Origin: a plasmid
Length of the DNA: 64,000 nt
Reading direction: 5' to 3' (one strand)
NCBI RefSeq assembly: GCF_054482525.1
Contig: NZ_JBTHVG010000007.1
Every line of letters begins with the position of its first letter. Positions within the stretch are counted from its first letter, which is position 1. The notes under the pieces were generated by a model. That model was given only the letters and a program-made list of their open reading frames with translations. It did not search any database and had not been told where the DNA came from. Below, in pieces: positions 3,752 to 30,771 of this stretch. Position numbers and translations under genes: made by a program.

Positions 3752-4765
3752 ATGAAAACCGCCACTGCGCCGTTACCACCGCTGCGTTCGGTCAAGGTTC
3801 TGGACCAGTTGCGTGAGCGCATACGCTACTTGCATTACAGTTTACGAACCGAACAGGCTTATGTCCACTGGGTTCGTGCCTTCATCCGTTTCCACGGTGT
3901 GCGTCACCCGGCAACCTTGGGCAGCAGCGAAGTCGAGGCATTTCTGTCCTGGCTGGCGAACGAGCGCAAGGTTTCGGTCTCCACGCATCGTCAGGCATTG
4001 GCGGCCTTGCTGTTCTTCTACGGCAAGGTGCTGTGCACGGATCTGCCCTGGCTTCAGGAGATCGGAAGACCTCGGCCGTCGCGGCGCTTGCCGGTGGTGC
4101 TGACCCCGGATGAAGTGGTTCGCATCCTCGGTTTTCTGGAAGGCGAGCATCGTTTGTTCGCCCAGCTTCTGTATGGAACGGGCATGCGGATCAGTGAGGG
4201 TTTGCAACTGCGGGTCAAGGATCTGGATTTCGATCACGGCACGATCATCGTGCGGGAGGGCAAGGGCTCCAAGGATCGGGCCTTGATGTTACCCGAGAGC
4301 TTGGCACCCAGCCTGCGCGAGCAGCTGTCGCGTGCACGGGCATGGTGGCTGAAGGACCAGGCCGAGGGCCGCAGCGGCGTTGCGCTTCCCGACGCCCTTG
4401 AGCGGAAGTATCCGCGCGCCGGGCATTCCTGGCCGTGGTTCTGGGTTTTTGCGCAGCACACGCATTCGACCGATCCACGGAGCGGTGTCGTGCGTCGCCA
4501 TCACATGTATGACCAGACCTTTCAGCGCGCCTTCAAACGTGCCGTAGAACAAGCAGGCATCACGAAGCCCGCCACACCGCACACCCTCCGCCACTCGTTC
4601 GCGACGGCCTTGCTCCGCAGCGGTTACGACATTCGAACTGTGCAGGATCTGCTCGGCCATTCCGACGTCTCTACGACGATGATTTACACGCATGTGCTGA
4701 AAGTTGGCGGTGCCGGAGTGCGCTCACCGCTTGATGCGCTGCCGCCCCTCACTAGTGAGAGGTAG
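3752..4765 (+). CDS. intI1: Class 1 integron integrase IntI1
   Basis: 337-aa [53 protein letters not shown]..., tyrosine recombinase motifs (HTLRHSFAT...[15 protein letters not shown]). Confidence 0.95.
3839..3867 (-). promoter_or_regulatory. Integron cassette promoter Pc (TGGACA - 17 bp - TAAACT, the hybrid PcH1 configuration) inside the 5' end of intI1
   Basis: Minus-strand -35 TGGACA (3862-3867) and -10 TAAACT (3839-3844) with 17-bp spacer, directed into the cassette array. Confidence 0.6.
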
Positions 4766-22097: not shown

Positions 22098-22310
22098 TTA
22101 CACCCTTCCCCGGCAGCGCCGGTGGCAGTGTTCAGCCCTTTTCCGGGCAAACTGTTGCCAGTCTGTCCGGGGAGCTATGCAGGCAGCCCGTCGCCATGCT
22201 TCTGCCGCTTCCATCCAGCGTCCACTGACCTCCAGAATAACGGCCCGCCCGCCGGCACGCTGGTAACGCCAGACCTGACCGTTCCGTGAACTGTTTCTGA
22301 ATCCATTCAT
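22098..22310 (-). CDS. Conserved F-plasmid hypothetical protein downstream of finO
   Basis: 70-aa ORF in the finO-repA intergenic backbone; no recognised function. Confidence 0.3.
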   Translation of the reverse strand: MNGFRNSSRNGQVWRYQRAGGRAVILEVSGRWMEAAEAWRRAACIAPRTDWQQFARKRAEHCHRRCRGRV

Positions 22311-22445
22311 TTTTCTGCTCCTCCCTTTTAGTCGTCAGTATTATTGTGGTAAATAATTCAGTGGACTGGCTTCCTTTCGGGTACGGAAGTTATTTCCTTT
22401 TAAGCCTTATTGTTTCAGCCTCCCCGGTTTCCGGGGAGGCTTTTT

Positions 22446-23006
22446 TTATTTCCCATCAAGCACGGCCTGAAGTTCTGCCTTTGTCCGGTTCTGGCGGCGA
22501 ATTTTCTCCAAACGCCCTGCCGCATACGCTTCCTCCTCCTGAGAAATATGCTCCGTCACATACCCTTCCGTGTCATACCGGCAGGCACCGGCTTTCATGG
22601 CACACAGATAGCTTTCTGAACGGGTGATGGCCTTCAGCGCCCGGCGCAGTTTTTTATGCGAGAGCGGGATATTCCGCTGCGCCACGTCTTCCAGTAACAC
22701 GTCCCGGATACCGCAGGCCAGAAGCCGGGGCGTGTTACCGTCAAACAATCCCGGCCACCAGGGTTTCAGAGTGTTCACCGCCTCATCCAGCGAGGGCAGC
22801 GTCAGATAAATGGACAGCGCCTGTCTGGCCTGTGCTTTCTTCGCCGCCAGCTCTGCTTCCCGGGCAGCCTTCTCCGCCAGTTTCTGCTTTTTCACCTTCC
22901 ATTTTGGTGGCGTGGTGACATTGATGATGGTTTTCCGGCTCCGGGTCGGTGTTTCCCCTTCCGTTTTCCGTTTCAGTGTCAGTACCGGTCGTTTCTGCTC
23001 TGTCAT
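22446..23006 (-). CDS. finO: Fertility inhibition protein FinO (RNA chaperone)
   Basis: 186-aa [67 protein letters not shown]... Confidence 0.9.
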
Positions 23007-23108
23007 GATTGCCCTGACCTTTGTGAAAATATGTCCTCCAGGTCGTTGAAACTACTCACTATGATATTAAGCTGACCTCAACGACCTCTGACATATTAAT
23101 ACCGACAA

Positions 23109-23969
23109 TTAAAGATGTTTTTTAAACCATTGCGTCTGTACTGCCGCCACACGTTCAAAAAACGCGCCTTTATAAATATCATAATGGCATGCGTCAGCTT
23201 CCTCGTATAATTCCTTAGTACCAGAAGCAACAGCATCATATAAGGCTCTTCCCTGTTCTGGTGGATTAACACTATCCTGGCCGGCAATAACAACCAAAAC
23301 TGGGCACTGTACTTTGGCTGCGCTCTCTGCCGGTTTATATTGCAACGTCTCCATAACCGTAAGGAAAGGTATTTTTATATCCATTTCAGGATACTGACCT
23401 TTTACCTTCTCGAAGAATACCTTTGATTCATTATCACTCAGTACCCGGGTAACCCCCACAAACATCTCTTTCCCGGTATTTTTCTTCTTTTCTGCCATTT
23501 TATTCAGCGTGGACAGAAAAGAAGCTTTCTCCAGTTCATTCATTTCTCCGGTAACCAGAACCTCACCGTCAGCAAAAGCCAGCTGGCTGACAATACATTT
23601 TACGCGTTGGTCCTGCGCAGCTGCACTGAAGACATGCCCCCCTCCCAGCGATGTTCCCCATAACCCAATACGCTGATTATCAATACATACCTGCTTTTCT
23701 GCCCAATTGATAACTGAAATAATATCTTCGGTCTGCATTGCCGGAACCAGACGACCTCGTTCCCCTTCACTCTCACCGAATCCACGATAATCAAAAGTAA
23801 TCGTTGCAAACCCGGCTTCTGTAAACGCATTCGCAAAGGAAGGCAGCAGAACATTCCGGATACCGCAAAATCCATGGCATAAGAGAATCAAAGGATGTTT
23901 TATATTTCCTTCCGGGACACGAAATGTCAGGGCAATACCTTCAGGGAGTTTGTGATCCGTAATTTTCAT
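23109..23969 (-). CDS. Alpha/beta-hydrolase (dienelactone hydrolase-like) between traX and finO
   Basis: 286-aa ORF with GxSxG nucleophile elbow (GLWGTSLGGG) and C-terminal D/H residues. Confidence 0.55.
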   Translation of the reverse strand: MKITDHKLPEGIALTFRVPEGNIKHPLILLCHGFCGIRNVLLPSFANAFTEAGFATITFDYRGFGESEGERGRLVPAMQTEDIISVINWAEKQVCIDNQRIGLWGTSLGGGHVFSAAAQDQRVKCIVSQLAFADGEVLVTGEMNELEKASFLSTLNKMAEKKKNTGKEMFVGVTRVLSDNESKVFFEKVKGQYPEMDIKIPFLTVMETLQYKPAESAAKVQCPVLVVIAGQDSVNPPEQGRALYDAVASGTKELYEEADACHYDIYKGAFFERVAAVQTQWFKKHL

Positions 23970-24027
23970 AAATATCCTGTGTTATGTTGTTTATTAATAA
24001 GCAGAATCAGCGCCAGCATCATACCAG

Positions 24028-24774
24028 TCACACAGCCAGAACGCCCAGCACAGTAAGATGACAGGCATAGAACGTCGGGAAAAAATCCCCGTACCAGAAA
24101 CGGGGTAGTGATTTCCCTGTACAGGACACCAGACCAACAGTCAGCACCGTCATCACAAGGCCGGCCACCGCCGCTGCATCACTGGTGGCAAGGTTAAGCG
24201 CCGGAATAACAGCCAGCAGGCAGGCGACCAGCGCCAGACGTTCCATTCTGTCTTCCGCCCGGTACAGCCTGTGGCTGACTGCCAGCATCAGCAGCCCGGC
24301 AATGCCGTAACTGGTGCCGGAGAAAGGCAACCACATTGCCAGAAGCAACATGGTCTCTGCGGAACGCCACCAGGTGCGCGTTTCACACCATGTCAGCACC
24401 TGTGCCGCAACTGCAAAGGCAAACAGGATATTCCCCTCATACCAGGGAAAGCCGGCCAGATAATATGCGAACTGGGCAATCACCGCCCATCCCCACAGCC
24501 GGTTAATGGCCTCCTGCCGGATATGCGTATGACGGGACAGATTCAGCCCCCACACCAGGGCAAACAGCGGAAAGGCCCCACGCCCGACCAGAAACATCCA
24601 CGACTGGTCCAGATGCAGAATGCGGTTTGCATGGTCCAGAACCATCAGCACCAGTGCCACCGTTTTGATGATATCCCGCTGTCCGGGTGACCAGACCAGC
24701 AACGACTGCAACCAGGTATCGGTCCGGGCAGCCAGTGAATCATTACGTGTTGTGTTCGTGTTATCCGTTGTCAT
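24028..24774 (-). CDS. traX: TraX, F-pilin N-acetylase
   Basis: 248-aa polytopic membrane ORF; position after traI. Confidence 0.85.
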   Translation of the reverse strand: MTTDNTNTTRNDSLAARTDTWLQSLLVWSPGQRDIIKTVALVLMVLDHANRILHLDQSWMFLVGRGAFPLFALVWGLNLSRHTHIRQEAINRLWGWAVIAQFAYYLAGFPWYEGNILFAFAVAAQVLTWCETRTWWRSAETMLLLAMWLPFSGTSYGIAGLLMLAVSHRLYRAEDRMERLALVACLLAVIPALNLATSDAAAVAGLVMTVLTVGLVSCTGKSLPRFWYGDFFPTFYACHLTVLGVLAV

Positions 24775-24793: not shown

Positions 24794-27700
24794 TCAGTCT
24801 CCGCCCAGGGTTTTCTCTTTCTGCAGGTCACGAACCATATCCCGCTCCATCTGCTGCAGTCGCTCCTGCAGCAGATTTTCCCGGGCAACCTCCCGGACCG
24901 CTTCCCGCACCCGTTGTGGTTCACGCAGTACACTCTCCGGCAGCGCGGCTTCCCGTTCAGATATGGCAGACCGGTCACGCTCCAGCCCGGCAATATCCCT
25001 GACAGCCTGCTCTGTTTTGCCGTCCGGCAGGTCAGGTTTGTTCTCTGCCATTTTACGGACAATTTCATCCGCACGGCGTTCCGTTTCACGGCGGATGGCC
25101 TCTTCAGCCTGCCGCTGTGCCAGTACCTCTGCCGTGACCGGTTCGCCATTTCCGGCTCCCGGCTGAACGCTGTTGTCCGGGATATCCCCCCACACGCGAC
25201 CACCGGTGATGGTTCTGGGATTCCACGGACGACCTTCACCGGCGATTCTTACCACCACACCGCTGTCAGGATTATCACGGGCAATCCGGACACCATCCTG
25301 CATATTATCAGCCAGCAGGCTCTCTCCGTTACGGCTGCCCTGCAGGGCCACGAACTGCGCATCCCCGCTGCCTTTCACCCGGCCTTCACCACTGAAGCCC
25401 CGCAGCCCGTTTCCGTCATCCGTGGTCAGCGGGTTCAGCCAGATACCAGCTGACTTGCCGTTACGGTCAAAAGCCGGCAGTGCCACATACGGCTGCGGAT
25501 ATTTGCGCCCGGGTGCAATAAACCGTGCAGGACTGTCTCCCCCGGCCAGCCCTGCCTGACGGAGAACGGCACGGCCGGCCACCACGTCCCGCAGCTCCCG
25601 CGCCGTACTGAACAGCCGCTCTGCATTCATGACCTCCCGGTCCGATTTCGGCTCTAGCACATCGTGGGCAGTTCCTTTCTGTACGGCATTGTTGATGGCA
25701 TCCGTCCAGCCCTGACGGTTATCGGTGTACACCTGCACATGCTGCTTCATACGCGACAGGGCCACGTAGGCTGACTCAAAGCCGGCCATCAGTTTCCGGT
25801 TACCTTCCGTGCCTTCAAGCGCGATGGCAAAGGTTTCACTTGCCCCCTGCGCACCGTGGGCGGTGATGGCATAAGCCAGGTCAATATGTTGCTCTGCCCG
25901 CTCCTGACCTGGGCGAATCACCCGGATCTGCTGTCCGTCCGACAGCGTGACACTGTCACCGGAAACCGCTGTCACCGTCCAGACGCTGTTGGCCACATAA
26001 CCTCGCTCCCGGTCACTCTTCGTGAAGCGCATCCGGTCACCGGTTCCCACCCGGATGGTGTCCGGGGTGTACAGTGTGACGCCTTCAGCCACCGCCTCCC
26101 GGGGCGAAATCAGCCGCGTGTTACCTTCCGCATCCTCCAGGGTTATCAGCCCGTCATCCTTGCTGATACCGGCAATCCGGTGATACACACTATCCACCAG
26201 GGCAAGGGCATCCGGGTTATTCTCCCAGGTGGAGAGACGACGCAGTTCTCCGTCACGTATATTCGCTGTGTTCAGGACAGGCACCATGACCTGCTCTTTG
26301 CCCAGCTCACCGGCCTTTTCCCGTGCATCATGAATCATGCTGTTCAGTACGCGCCGGTCCTCATTCAGGTGTGTGACAATCAGCGTCTGCTCCCGTGCTT
26401 CCGGTGTCCTGCCGGTATAGTCGCGGACAATGGCTTCATACAGTGTCATGGGGATATCCGGGAAAGCCTCGCCTTTCAGCATCGCCTTCTGCTGCGCTTC
26501 TGCCAGTTTCGCTTCCTGGCTGTGACTGAACTCCGTCACGGAGTGCTCCGGTGCCCATGCGCCCTCCTGACGGGGAACCTGAGACGGTTTCACACTCTCA
26601 AGCCCGGACAGTGCCCTTTCCACATCCCGGTTAATCAGGCTGTATACCGCCTCCCGCAGTTCCGGCGTCTGACGCACAATCTCCTTCATGATGACCACAT
26701 CGGCAGCACTGCGCGTCTGCTGGAGACGGAAAGGCTGACCGGGCGCGATGGCCTGCAACTGGTCCGTGTCACCACTGGCCACGGCACGACCGCCACCGGC
26801 CGCAATCAGGGCGTATGCCCGTGCCATGTCGGTATTGCCCACCATAGAGCTCTCATCGAGCAGGAACAGCGTGTTGCTGAAATTCGGCGTTTCTCCGCTG
26901 CGCTGCAGCAGCTGCGTGTCATGCAGAAAGGACGCCAGCGTCTGTGCATCCACGCCGGCGCTGCGCATCTCACCGACCGCACGGTGCGTGGGCCCCAGCC
27001 CCACGACACGGGGACGTTCACTCTCCGGCAGCATGTTCACGGCTGACATCACCGCCCGGAACTGTGTGGTCTTACCCACACCGGCATAGCCCTGCACCAC
27101 CGTGAAACGGTCGGACGTTTCCAGTATCATGCGGGTAGCGGCACGCTGTCCTGATGTCAGTTTCTCCATGAGTTCGCCAGGTACTCTCTCCATCAGTGGC
27201 GTGACCGCCTCCTTACCTTCGAGAATATGGCGAAGAATGCTCTTTTCTGCCTCATACGACGCACGGGAAACCAGCAGGCCTGTGCCATAGCCTTTTGCCA
27301 CATCCACATACAGTAAATCACCGCGTTTTATCTGCGCATTGATTTCCCCTCCCAGTTCAGTAAAACTGGTTCCTTCTGCAGCAAACGACTTCGCCTCTGT
27401 CAGCAGGTCCACCATGCTGAAGGCCAGGTTTTTACTTTCCACCACAGGAAGCGCCAGATGAATAGCCTGCTGTGCCGGCGTGTGAAGCCCGGTTTTCTGC
27501 AGACTGATAGCGGTTTCCAGCAATGTCTCACCGGCACGCGCCTTTATCTGCTCAGAAACCACCGTAAAGGAGGGATGGCGGGCAAGTTTTTCCGCAGTAC
27601 GGGTTTCATCCAGTGAGGAATACAGCCGGACATCACGACCGCTGCGGGCCAGACCGTTCAGGGTGGCGTTGTCCATTGCCATCTGTGTGACGGAGGCAAA

Positions 27701-30064
27701 AACCTTCGCACTGTCGCTGACGGAATGCCCGGGCGTTTCCACCCAGCCGTTCTCCAGCTTCAGTGCCATGAATGGTGAATCGCTCACAGGCAGGGAGGCC
27801 GGTTCAGCCCGCCCCGGCACAACAACCGTCATCGCATCTTCACTGACGGATGCCACCTGCAGGCGGTCACCGCCGGAGACGCGGAGTCCGGGAATTTTCC
27901 CTGTCACCCTCAGTCGCTCGCCGTCTGCCACCGGCATTTTTTCCGGCCGGAACAGCGACCAGCTGCTGTCCAGGGAGGAAATACGCACCACCTGCGTTTC
28001 ATCCTGCGCATCCCGCAGGGTCAGGCTGTTACTCTGCGCCGTCACCCGGTCGATAACATAGCGGTCATGACTGCGTGTCTCCGGGTTCCACTGCTCCATC
28101 ACCATCCCCGGACGGTACATATCCCGCAGATAACGGCTCCGGCTGTCCAGCCAGACCGGCGACAGGGCGGTCATGGTTACCTCCGGGCGTCCGAGCACGC
28201 CCTGTGTTTTCAGCTCACTGCGAATGGCCTGTGTCAGTATGGCCTGTTCCCGTACCCCGCTGACCTGTGCCACGCTCTCTTCTCCGGCTTTCACGCTGGC
28301 AGCAAAATCTCCTGCCAGCCGGGCATAGCGGACATTACGGTCCGGTTCACTGATGATGGTGGCCGGCCGCTGTTCTCCCCCCTGCCAGCGATATGTGTTC
28401 ACCCCGGCATCTTTCATGGCCATCAGTGCACTGCCTGTACCGGTTCGCTGCCCGCTGTCGGTTATCAGGACCTGTACGTTATGACGTGCGGCACCGTCCA
28501 GCAGGGTTAACGTCTCTTTCAGGGAGAGTTTTTCGCCCTGGTCAACGATAACAGTATTGCCCGGCGTGAAGGCCATGCCCTCCTGCAGCTGACGACGTCC
28601 GGTTATCAGCTCACCGGACAGCCGTTCATCCTGCTTCAGGTTCATCTGCGAGCGACGGTCAGCGGCGATAATCTGCACCTCCCGCCCCTGCTCCCGGGCC
28701 ATCATGACCAGCTCCGCCACCCGCTCACGCTGCCCGGCTGCACCGCCCTGCCCGGACACAATAGCCAGCGACGGGCGATCCTGTGCCAGAACACTGACCG
28801 CATCGCTGTAACCGGCCGTCCGGGGGACACTTTTCTCCGGATGTACGGTCACCCGGTTCTGTTTCATGATGTCACGACTGAGTGCCCGGACTGACAGCTC
28901 ATCGAGCACATGAATCCCGGACGTGAACAGCCCCTTCTCACGATCGAGGGGGATAAGCTGCTCACGGCTGATGGCCTCATCGATACCGGCGCGTGCCCGT
29001 TCAATCACACCATTTTCCGGCGGCAGTATGCCGACCGTTCTGGCCAGCACGTCCGTGTACGTAAACTGCACTTTGCGTTCACTTAATCCGGCAATGGCCT
29101 GTGTCACCGCCTGCTGCACATCCGGCCCGTCCTGTGAAGCGGGTCCGGGCGTCTGCGTGCGGGTCTCCGCCCGTTGGTCCGCCGCGTCACGATACGCCCG
29201 GATGTCGAACCCGGTTTCCTTCAGCGTCTGCATCCATTCAGCCATTCTGACTTCAGGATCGACGTGCTGTTTGGATTTTCGCGTATCCAGTGCCGCCACA
29301 TCCCGGGATTTCAGCGAGGCGTCTTCCCCGACGGCCTCCCGGATAGCCTGTGAGCGTCCGGAGAAGGCCTCCACCGGTACGCCCGGCATCTCCCACATAC
29401 CGTGCTTACCAACCACTTCCGTTTCATAGCCTAGCGCCTCAACCTGCTCTTTCAGTTTTTCCCGGTAGAGCCTGCCGAAGGCAATCTGATTAGCGTACAC
29501 ATTCTCAATGAACCCCGTTTTCCCCACTTTGTCACTGCTCAATGTCTTCCACTCGCCGTTATGCTGCGTGACATTGGCCACTACCGCATGTGTGTGTAAC
29601 TGTGGTTCCTGATCGCGACTGGTGTCGTGGTTAAACAGTGCCATCACCAGATTACCGGTCAGCACCGTTTCTGACTGTCCGTCCGTCATAACCCGTGTGG
29701 AAGCCAGCGCCTCCACCTGACGGACAGCAAAATCCACGGCCTGGTTATGTGCATCAATAAGACGTTTATCACCGCCTAACATGGCCATCACGGAGACACT
29801 TTTGGGGGCGGAGAAGGTCAGGTCGTAGCCGGGACGATGCTTATTACTGCCATCCTGCATGCGGCTTAAATCCGCTCCGTCCGGCAGCTTCCCCTCCAGA
29901 AGACGGGTAAAAACATCCTTATCGACGCTGCCCTGCAGCCCCAGCTGTTCAGCCCCCCTGCCGGCCCAGCGTTCTCCCATGCTGCCCAGCACATAGTAAT
30001 TATCCTTGTCGGTATAATAGTTACCGGCACTTCCGGCCGATCTGACCTGCGCGATACTCATCAT
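24794..30064 (-). CDS. traI: TraI relaxase/helicase
   Basis: About 1756-aa product starting MMSIAQVRSAGSAGNYYTDKDNYYVLG...; relaxase N-terminus and Walker-type helicase motifs. Confidence 0.95.
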   Translation of the reverse strand: MMSIAQVRSAGSAGNYYTDKDNYYVLGSMGERWAGRGAEQLGLQGSVDKDVFTRLLEGKLPDGADLSRMQDGSNKHRPGYDLTFSAPKSVSVMAMLGGDKRLIDAHNQAVDFAVRQVEALASTRVMTDGQSETVLTGNLVMALFNHDTSRDQEPQLHTHAVVANVTQHNGEWKTLSSDKVGKTGFIENVYANQIAFGRLYREKLKEQVEALGYETEVVGKHGMWEMPGVPVEAFSGRSQAIREAVGEDASLKSRDVAALDTRKSKQHVDPEVRMAEWMQTLKETGFDIRAYRDAADQRAETRTQTPGPASQDGPDVQQAVTQAIAGLSERKVQFTYTDVLARTVGILPPENGVIERARAGIDEAISREQLIPLDREKGLFTSGIHVLDELSVRALSRDIMKQNRVTVHPEKSVPRTAGYSDAVSVLAQDRPSLAIVSGQGGAAGQRERVAELVMMAREQGREVQIIAADRRSQMNLKQDERLSGELITGRRQLQEGMAFTPGNTVIVDQGEKLSLKETLTLLDGAARHNVQVLITDSGQRTGTGSALMAMKDAGVNTYRWQGGEQRPATIISEPDRNVRYARLAGDFAASVKAGEESVAQVSGVREQAILTQAIRSELKTQGVLGRPEVTMTALSPVWLDSRSRYLRDMYRPGMVMEQWNPETRSHDRYVIDRVTAQSNSLTLRDAQDETQVVRISSLDSSWSLFRPEKMPVADGERLRVTGKIPGLRVSGGDRLQVASVSEDAMTVVVPGRAEPASLPVSDSPFMALKLENGWVETPGHSVSDSAKVFASVTQMAMDNATLNGLARSGRDVRLYSSLDETRTAEKLARHPSFTVVSEQIKARAGETLLETAISLQKTGLHTPAQQAIHLALPVVESKNLAFSMVDLLTEAKSFAAEGTSFTELGGEINAQIKRGDLLYVDVAKGYGTGLLVSRASYEAEKSILRHILEGKEAVTPLMERVPGELMEKLTSGQRAATRMILETSDRFTVVQGYAGVGKTTQFRAVMSAVNMLPESERPRVVGLGPTHRAVGEMRSAGVDAQTLASFLHDTQLLQRSGETPNFSNTLFLLDESSMVGNTDMARAYALIAAGGGRAVASGDTDQLQAIAPGQPFRLQQTRSAADVVIMKEIVRQTPELREAVYSLINRDVERALSGLESVKPSQVPRQEGAWAPEHSVTEFSHSQEAKLAEAQQKAMLKGEAFPDIPMTLYEAIVRDYTGRTPEAREQTLIVTHLNEDRRVLNSMIHDAREKAGELGKEQVMVPVLNTANIRDGELRRLSTWENNPDALALVDSVYHRIAGISKDDGLITLEDAEGNTRLISPREAVAEGVTLYTPDTIRVGTGDRMRFTKSDRERGYVANSVWTVTAVSGDSVTLSDGQQIRVIRPGQERAEQHIDLAYAITAHGAQGASETFAIALEGTEGNRKLMAGFESAYVALSRMKQHVQVYTDNRQGWTDAINNAVQKGTAHDVLEPKSDREVMNAERLFSTARELRDVVAGRAVLRQAGLAGGDSPARFIAPGRKYPQPYVALPAFDRNGKSAGIWLNPLTTDDGNGLRGFSGEGRVKGSGDAQFVALQGSRNGESLLADNMQDGVRIARDNPDSGVVVRIAGEGRPWNPRTITGGRVWGDIPDNSVQPGAGNGEPVTAEVLAQRQAEEAIRRETERRADEIVRKMAENKPDLPDGKTEQAVRDIAGLERDRSAISEREAALPESVLREPQRVREAVREVARENLLQERLQQMERDMVRDLQKEKTLGGD

Positions 30065-30145
30065 AAACGTATATCCCTTTGACATATCCCGGTATCAATC
30101 CCACAATGGATATACACAAGACATATCCACATAAGGAGGCAAATA

Positions 30146-30373
30146 ATGGAAACCACCGTATTTTTCAGCAACCGCAGCCAGGCGGTCAGACTGCCAAAAG
30201 CGGTTGCATTGCCGGAAAACGTAAAACGCGTTGAAGTGATTGCTGTCGGACGAACCAGAATCATTACGCCAGCCGGAGAGACATGGGACGAATGGTTCGA
30301 CGGACACAACGTCAGCGCCGATTTTATGGATAACAGGGAACAGCCCGGCATGCAGGAAAGGGAGTCATTCTGA
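30146..30373 (+). CDS. vapB: VapB-family antitoxin (AbrB/SpoVT-like)
   Basis: 75-aa ORF METTVFFSNRSQAVRLPKAVALPENVKRVEVIAVGRTRIITPAG...; overlaps vapC start. Confidence 0.75.
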   Translation: METTVFFSNRSQAVRLPKAVALPENVKRVEVIAVGRTRIITPAGETWDEWFDGHNVSADFMDNREQPGMQERESF

Positions 30374-30771
30374 TGCTGAAGTTTATGCTCGATACCAACA
30401 TCTGCATTTTCACGATAAAGAACAAACCCGCCAGCGTCAGGGAGCGTTTTAACCTGAACCAGGGGAGAATGTGTATCAGTTCGGTCACCCTGATGGAGCT
30501 GATATATGGTGCAGAAAAAAGCCAGATGCCTGAACGTAATCTCGCTGTGATCGAGGGATTTGTTTCCCGCATTGATGTTCTGGATTACGACGCTGCCGCA
30601 GCCACACACAGCGGCCAGATAAGAGCAGAACTTGCCCGTCAGGGACGCCCTGTCGGGCCATTTGATCAAATGATCGCAGGTCATGCCCGCAGTCGGGGAC
30701 TGATTATTGTGACTAATAACACCCGGGAATTTGAACGTGTGGACGGTCTGAGAATTGAAGACTGGAGCTGA
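30373..30771 (+). CDS. vapC: VapC PIN-domain toxin
   Basis: 132-aa ORF MLKFMLDTNICIFTIKNKPASVRERF... with PIN acidic residues. Confidence 0.8.
   Translation: MLKFMLDTNICIFTIKNKPASVRERFNLNQGRMCISSVTLMELIYGAEKSQMPERNLAVIEGFVSRIDVLDYDAAAATHSGQIRAELARQGRPVGPFDQMIAGHARSRGLIIVTNNTREFERVDGLRIEDWS

Follow-up and report, generated by a model that had tools for sequence, protein, structure and literature searches.

The 861-bp gene that separates traX from finO in the analyzed DNA, a plasmid stretch of 64,000 nucleotides referred to here as the window, is not a new one, being already known both as orf286 and as uilS. Its product belongs to the UilS family and is predicted to be built as a serine hydrolase of the capped alpha/beta type. 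With a confidence somewhat above even, we propose that N-acyl-homoserine lactones (AHLs) are its most likely physiological substrates, and that the plasmid enzyme would act as a quorum-quenching sink.

Position of the gene and its neighbours

The coding sequence occupies positions 23109..23969 on the minus strand, as an intact ATG-to-stop open reading frame (ORF) of 286 aa, whose predicted product is a UilS-family alpha/beta hydrolase with a cap, located in the cytoplasm. Its upstream neighbour is traX (24028..24774, minus strand, 248 aa), which encodes the pilin acetylase and with which the tra operon proper ends; it was recognized both by the Pfam TraX profile (3.9e-65) and by the NCBIfam TraX equivalog (530 bits). 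Downstream lies finO (22446..23006, minus strand, 186 aa), coding for the fertility-inhibition RNA chaperone, which matches FinO_N (1.1e-38) and ProQ/FinO (3.1e-27) in Pfam, and scores 357 bits in NCBIfam. Along the tra operon, traI (24794..30085), traX, the hydrolase gene and finO follow one another on the minus strand, all in one direction, with a 58-nt spacer between traX and uilS and a 102-nt spacer between the hydrolase stop codon and the finO ATG. The first-pass annotation had thus placed the gene correctly, as to coordinates, length and neighbours, and had given no strand, which is the minus one. Such an ORF is far beyond chance expectation, as the identical protein is encoded on at least 1000 public contigs and is subject to purifying selection.

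A few features were noted in the vicinity. A vapB/vapC toxin-antitoxin pair (30146..30771, plus strand) lies just past the traI start, in divergent orientation; in plasmid F such a pair is found between traD and traI. Directly past the finO stop codon, at 22417..22441, there is a GC-rich perfect hairpin of 11 pairs followed by a plus-strand T-run, which probably terminates either the gene that converges on finO or transcripts from both sides. Downstream of finO, an ORF of 70 aa (22098..22310, minus strand) takes the position of the gene annotated as "ANR family transcriptional regulator" in p14EC020b, R100 and pO157.

A known gene with a wide distribution

Plasmid R100 (NC_002134) has this trio of genes at identical spacings: traX spans 83756-84502, an 861-bp "alpha/beta hydrolase" 84561-85421 and finO 85524-86084. 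The hydrolase ORF of R100 is 96.5% identical to that of the window at the DNA level, and the 102-nt spacer preceding finO is identical in the two plasmids. Comparison of the R100 allele (WP_000704523) to the window allele, of the WP_000704514 type, gave a dN of 0.017 and a dS of 0.10. We take this 286-codon ORF of R100/R6-5 to be the orf286 of the older literature, known since about 1990; orf286 of these plasmids was reportedly dealt with by Yoshioka et al., by Cram et al. (1991, Gene 104:85) and by van Biesen and Frost (1992). A full-text literature search for orf286 by name retrieved only unrelated papers, on organelles and phages; the traX-finO interval is not discussed in the comparative paper 'The Five Shades of F', and no description of orf286 was found in reviews citing van Biesen and Frost 1992.

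DNA 100% identical to that of the window is annotated as "uilS" in RefSeq. Of the 5,426 complete E. coli genomes in RefSeq, 1,933 (36%) carry the gene, nearly always on plasmids, which account for 2,048 of the 2,055 places where it occurs. In PLSDB, 2,845 plasmids match, 2,245 of them with at least 80% of the gene; the carriers belong mostly to Escherichia and Klebsiella, but also to Shigella and Salmonella. By the terms of the first-pass annotation, its reading would be refuted if the gene turned out to belong to the known backbone and to have a defined function. This is largely the case, since it is orf286 of R100/R6-5 and has a function defined at the family level; the part that does not stand is its backbone status, discussed below.

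Copies of the gene 94-99% identical to it (76% in the Bacillus record) were also found on five short contigs (330-2196 bp), in records labelled as Clostridiales, Collinsella, Terrisporobacter, Acinetobacter idrijaensis and Bacillus. These look like the result of contamination or mis-binning, rather than an indication of the true host range.

An acquired segment between traX and finO

The composition of the hydrolase gene departs from that of its neighbours. Its G+C content is 44.3%, and 38.7% at third codon positions (GC3), as against 57.4% and 65.9% in traX, 56.7% and 64.7% in finO, and 59.7% and 65.9% in traI. In a sliding profile, G+C ranges from 0.41 to 0.48 within a segment of about 1.0 kb, 23008..24019, and from 0.55 to 0.63 on either side of it. 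This segment (minus strand), which comprises the coding sequence, a short leader and the 102-nt spacer, is shared by the window and R100 and is absent from plasmid F: in a BLAST comparison to the latter, homology through traX ends at 24020 and restarts at 23007, one base ahead of the finO ATG, and F carries just 45 bp in place of the whole segment. The 45-bp spacer of F resembles, by eye, the hydrolase leader (GATTC, AACACAG), so that the indel essentially corresponds to the ORF plus its 3' spacer.

A query representing the F-type junction, in which the 45 bp of F are flanked by 300 bp each of traX and finO, was found uninterrupted in at least 2,763 records among the 5,000 covered, the other matches listed consisting of two separate pieces. 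The traX-finO interval therefore occurs among F-like plasmids mainly in two forms, one without the gene (roughly 55%) and one with it (45%; at least 2,763 direct junctions versus 2,245 plasmids with the hydrolase gene). These figures bear out two statements of the first-pass annotation, namely that the gene is cargo and that this interval varies between F-like plasmids. That it might be a universal gene of the F-like tra backbone was ruled out by its absence from F and about half of its relatives, and by its off-backbone composition. Base composition and plasmid comparison support the view that uilS was horizontally acquired and inserted between traX and finO.

Fold and catalytic residues

The Pfam profile Abhydrolase_1 matches residues 26-268 of the protein along nearly all of its length (positions 1-244 of 245), with an E value of 2.4e-32 and a score of 113 bits against a cut-off of 25.8. 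The nucleophile elbow (GxSxG) is formed by G105-T-S107-L-G109; a second G-E-S-E-G motif, at residues 65-69, lies outside the elbow position. Alignment of 33 full-length homologues, 63-98% identical, showed that Ser107, Asp232, His262 and the His32-Gly33 pair are invariant, and Asp232 is kept in all the plasmid alleles, in a Klebsiella pneumoniae paralogue and in Serratia inhibens.

The AlphaFold2 model built on the same alignment (mean pLDDT 86.3, pTM 0.86) places Ser107, the predicted nucleophile (codon 23649..23651, minus strand), in the turn that links strand 96-106 to helix 108-119. Asp232 (23274..23276, minus strand), predicted to be the triad acid, lies past strand 224-229, and the predicted base, His262 (23184..23186, minus strand), past strand 252-257; both are supported by invariance and model, and by all alleles compared. 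His32-Gly33 (23871..23876, minus strand) ends strand 25-31, the first of the core, and this HG motif is predicted to lie in the region of the oxyanion hole, a role which we presume from general knowledge of alpha/beta hydrolases. A mostly helical insertion, at residues 135-215 approximately, forms a cap. Residues 107, 232 and 262 thus follow the order nucleophile, acid, histidine expected of serine hydrolases of the alpha/beta-hydrolase type, and are conserved in homologues; their assignment rests on conservation and on strand placement in the model. As far as sequence order and modelled strands tell, the topology is that of a canonical capped alpha/beta serine hydrolase.

A Foldseek search of the PDB returned as top match an alpha/beta-hydrolase from Chloroflexus (7qjm, TM 0.85), followed by E. 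coli YcjY (5xb6); PA2218, the thioesterase DcsB, monoacylglycerol lipases and feruloyl esterases were found further down, and sequence and profile searches of the PDB led to the same set. No AHL lactonase structure was present among the best 60 PDB sequence/profile matches or the best 50 fold matches listed, nor was a solved structure of the UilS family found among the sequence, profile and fold matches listed. Lactamase_B, the profile of the AiiA-type metallo-beta-lactamase AHL lactonases, gave no Pfam match, and nor did profiles related to it, every match being to an alpha/beta-hydrolase family. An N-terminus with the character of a signal peptide was not recognized either, on reading the sequence (MKITDHKLPEG...). 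An alpha/beta hydrolase with a GxSxG elbow had been proposed for this gene at first reading, and the Abhydrolase_1 match, the invariant S107, D232 and H262 and the Foldseek TM of 0.85 agree well with it, adding a predicted catalytic triad.

Assignment to the UilS family

In NCBIfam, the protein is matched by NF047920, an equivalog-level model for the UilS family of quorum-quenching N-acyl-homoserine lactonases, at 505.5 bits (cut-off 400). Residues 2-286 align to positions 1-285 of the 285 in the profile; this is the sole above-threshold NCBIfam match, the next one scoring 31 bits. The family takes its name from UilS of Serratia marcescens RM66262 (RT90_RS06020; Tuttobene et al. 2024, mBio, PMC11633161). 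As a proxy for the latter we used the representative (P0122) of a 194-member cluster of chromosomal S. marcescens proteins, named UilS by NCBI and UniRef and recovered by using as query the Serratia inhibens homologue from the genome scan. The plasmid hydrolase is 64% identical to it (78% positives) over 286 aa, with no gaps. Since UilS proteins of clinical S. marcescens are 97-100% identical to each other (PMC11633161), this representative is expected to differ little from the UilS that was tested.

In Serratia, mutation of uilS abolishes the urea-induced loss of added C10-AHL, which is restored by complementation, and expression of the gene in E. coli TOP10 is sufficient for C10-AHL removal. 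Serratia UilS, which is cytoplasmic, also removes the AHLs of P. aeruginosa PAO1, the activity being cell-associated, and the mutant is attenuated when catheter-associated urinary tract infection is modelled in mice (PMC11633161). AHL degradation was deduced there from biosensor read-outs of cultures and mutants; mass spectrometry, rescue by acidification and re-lactonisation, or assays of purified UilS are not found in the text of that report, and the 'lactonase' label derives from a RAST annotation as "dienelactone hydrolase" and from 28% identity to AidA (PMC11633161). On such read-outs UilS is a putative lactonase, and may instead be an acylase or esterase.

A full-text literature search retrieved no study of a plasmid-borne copy of uilS. 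AHL degradation by the plasmid protein is predicted by homology, at 64% identity, a level at which the reaction class is likely to be kept and substrate preference can shift. The substrate had initially been described as unknown. This no longer holds at the family level, given the NF047920 match, the uilS label in RefSeq and the in vivo degradation of AHLs by the 64% identical Serratia UilS; for the plasmid copy itself, the function is predicted by homology.

A genome scan identified 249 relatives. Those 60-71% identical are encoded by chromosomes or megaplasmids of Enterobacterales (Citrobacter, Enterobacter, Pantoea, Erwinia, Kosakonia, Yersinia, Edwardsiella and Serratia inhibens) and of Stenotrophomonas, and more distant ones are found in Burkholderia, Dyella and Vibrio. 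When all ORFs within 4 kb of chromosomal homologues were clustered, for a total of 50 loci, no neighbour family recurred in more than 5 loci; gene context therefore neither supports nor contradicts a role in AHL degradation.

A second paralogue of the UilS family was observed on virulence-type plasmids of K. pneumoniae (3880-4740 in locus L004 and 3754-4614 in locus L005). It shares about 70% aa and 68% nt identity with the window gene and adjoins a Tn3-family transposase, outside any tra region. Scaffold2 of K. pneumoniae ATCC 13883 carries both an F-type copy (98%) and this second paralogue.

Proposed activity and substrates

In the mechanism we propose, Ser107, activated by His262 and Asp232, would attack the ester carbonyl, with the His32-Gly33 region supplying the oxyanion hole. 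AHLs diffusing into the cell would be the most likely physiological substrates, and opening of the lactone ring the probable chemistry. E. coli, Shigella, Salmonella and Klebsiella make no AHLs, so plasmid-carrying cells would be a sink for the AHL signals of other species, which amounts to quorum quenching. The enzyme would be expressed by read-through from the tra operon; the DNA of uilS would, in addition, form the upstream context of finO. The NF047920 score, the 64% identity to S. marcescens UilS, the conserved triad, the model and the signs of selection described below speak for AHLs as substrates. The nearest structures among the matches listed, which are esterases, lipases and a thioesterase, speak against them, and the lack of a shared neighbourhood among homologues lends them no separate support.

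The same two observations could indicate a general carboxylesterase, lipase or thioesterase, acting in enteric hosts on a different substrate, such as esters from the host or its diet, monoacylglycerols or small-molecule toxins, with the loss of AHLs as a side activity. 7qjm, YcjY, DcsB, monoacylglycerol lipases and feruloyl esterases, the nearest solved structures among the matches listed, fit this possibility, as do the AHL-less hosts E. coli, Klebsiella and Salmonella, the absence of a recurrent neighbour family around the 50 chromosomal homologues and the biosensor data on UilS, which would also fit an acylase or an esterase (PMC11633161). However, the only experimental data for the family, the loss of function in the mutant and the gain of function in E. 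coli, concern AHLs, and the plasmid protein scores above an equivalog-level cut-off. We regard a general esterase as rather unlikely, and keep AHL degradation as the preferred assignment.

Transcription and the upstream context of finO

A consensus scan found no promoter-like site on the minus strand of the 58-nt spacer between traX and uilS, and a single weak match (9-of-12) within the hydrolase ORF, compatible with chance. A terminator-like hairpin followed by ATTTTTT was observed at 24087..24105 (minus strand), within the traX coding sequence and about 60 nt before its stop codon; the match may have arisen by chance, or the hairpin may lower the read-through that reaches the hydrolase gene and finO. 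A promoter or terminator of its own, isolating the hydrolase gene, was discarded, as the only candidates are these ORF-internal and traX-internal sites, both compatible with chance. With no promoter-like site in the spacer, and a terminator-like one only inside traX, co-transcription with the tra operon is the economical reading, and uilS most likely rides on tra-operon read-through, judging from the sequence.

The spacer between the hydrolase gene and finO is predicted to fold into a long RNA hairpin (23028..23097, minus strand; inner stem 23040..23087), located 21-90 nt before the finO ATG. Its minimum free energy is -31.5 kcal/mol (z = -3.68), and none of 200 shuffled sequences was as stable. 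The diverged allele of pO157 differs in the loop and the outer stem but retains the inner stem of 12 bp, where one A-to-G substitution results in a U-G pair. For this hairpin, an action on the finO mRNA or on read-through may be envisaged.

Plasmids of the R6-5/R100 type inhibit fertility more strongly, which van Biesen and Frost reportedly attributed in 1992 (Mol Microbiol 6:771) to a higher level of finO mRNA, brought about by the orf286 region. The hairpin may be tied to this effect, for which it is a plausible element, or may represent a 3' structure that belongs to the captured gene itself.

Selection on the plasmid alleles

Five plasmid alleles were compared, from the window, R100, pO157, pCFSAN004179G and pO103-2. 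All are 861 bp long and intact, and keep S107, D232 and H262; pairwise dN/dS ratios range from 0.08 to 0.17, with dS values of up to 0.41. The hydrolase protein is under purifying selection.

The gene also outlives decay of the tra region. In pO103-2 and pCFSAN004179G only the last 70-100 nt of traX, approximately, are found upstream of it, and finO is gone downstream; IS66 elements or toxin-antitoxin genes lie near the hydrolase gene. In pO157, typed as non-mobilizable, traX, the hydrolase gene and finO all persist. Maintenance of an intact gene in the absence of finO, and its retention on pO157, argue both against a dead passenger and against a role exerted purely at the RNA level.

These data bear on the possibility that the segment is kept mainly as a cis-acting RNA or transcription context, which raises finO mRNA and strengthens fertility inhibition, the enzyme being secondary. 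A cis-acting role is said to be the classical view of orf286, going back to van Biesen and Frost 1992. It is in keeping with the location of the gene directly upstream of finO, with the strength of the spacer hairpin, whose inner stem is kept in a diverged allele, and with the correspondence of the two forms of the interval to two classes of finO context. The low dN/dS ratios and the triad found intact in every allele, on the other hand, denote selection on the protein, and pCFSAN004179G and pO103-2 preserve the gene with no finO to act upon. As the main reason for retention we therefore hold a cis-acting role to be quite improbable. A cis-acting RNA role and an enzymatic one are compatible, and the former may be complementary to the latter. 

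A pseudogene or decaying passenger without current function, suggested by the foreign composition and by the normal transfer of the F-like plasmids, F included, that lack the gene (about half of them), was ruled out on the low dN/dS and intact triad and is extremely improbable: every allele compared has an undisrupted 861-bp frame, 36% of complete E. coli genomes contain the gene, and non-mobilizable pO157 retains it.

Implications

As a discovery the finding carries little weight, orf286 having been in the literature since the early 1990s and the label uilS being already in RefSeq. Its useful outcome is a correction, by which 'substrate unknown' is replaced by a specific assignment, predicted AHL degradation by homology to Serratia UilS.

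A wider reading is that a plasmid uilS active on AHLs, its expression being tied to the tra operon and finO, provides a transferable quorum-quenching trait to AHL-less hosts. We consider this unlikely as a whole. If true, the trait could blunt the SdiA-mediated sensing of AHLs by the hosts or work against competitors that use AHLs, and an effect back on conjugation is conceivable. As uilS adjoins a fertility-inhibition gene on plasmids in more than one third of complete E. coli genomes, IncF plasmids could then pass on quorum quenching together with genes for resistance and virulence.

Comparison with related enzymes

Among the matches listed, the closest solved folds are YcjY (5xb6) and the Chloroflexus hydrolase '202' (7qjm), which share the capped architecture of the plasmid protein (TM 0.78-0.85). 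Their sequences are only 23-25% identical to it, their annotations read "uncharacterised protein" and "alpha/beta-hydrolase", respectively, and neither is an AHL enzyme. AidH and AidA, the AHL lactonases with an alpha/beta-hydrolase fold, belong to the same superfamily and presumably act on AHLs by the same serine-hydrolase mechanism, but are too distant to appear among the best 60 PDB or the best 50 fold matches listed.

The closest characterized counterpart is Serratia UilS, from which the plasmid system differs in location, regulation and host. Serratia uilS is chromosomal, whereas the plasmid gene lies at the end of the tra operon, with a G+C content of 44% as compared to 57.5% in the Serratia inhibens homologue. 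The former is controlled by LuxR and by CpxR/urea via its own promoter region, of which no equivalent was found at the plasmid gene, and the hosts of plasmid uilS are devoid of LuxI. At the protein level, in contrast, the two are closely similar: both are 286 aa long and feature the Ser/Asp/His triad and the HG motif, and the plasmid hydrolase lacks a signal peptide, which agrees with its Serratia homologue being cytoplasmic.
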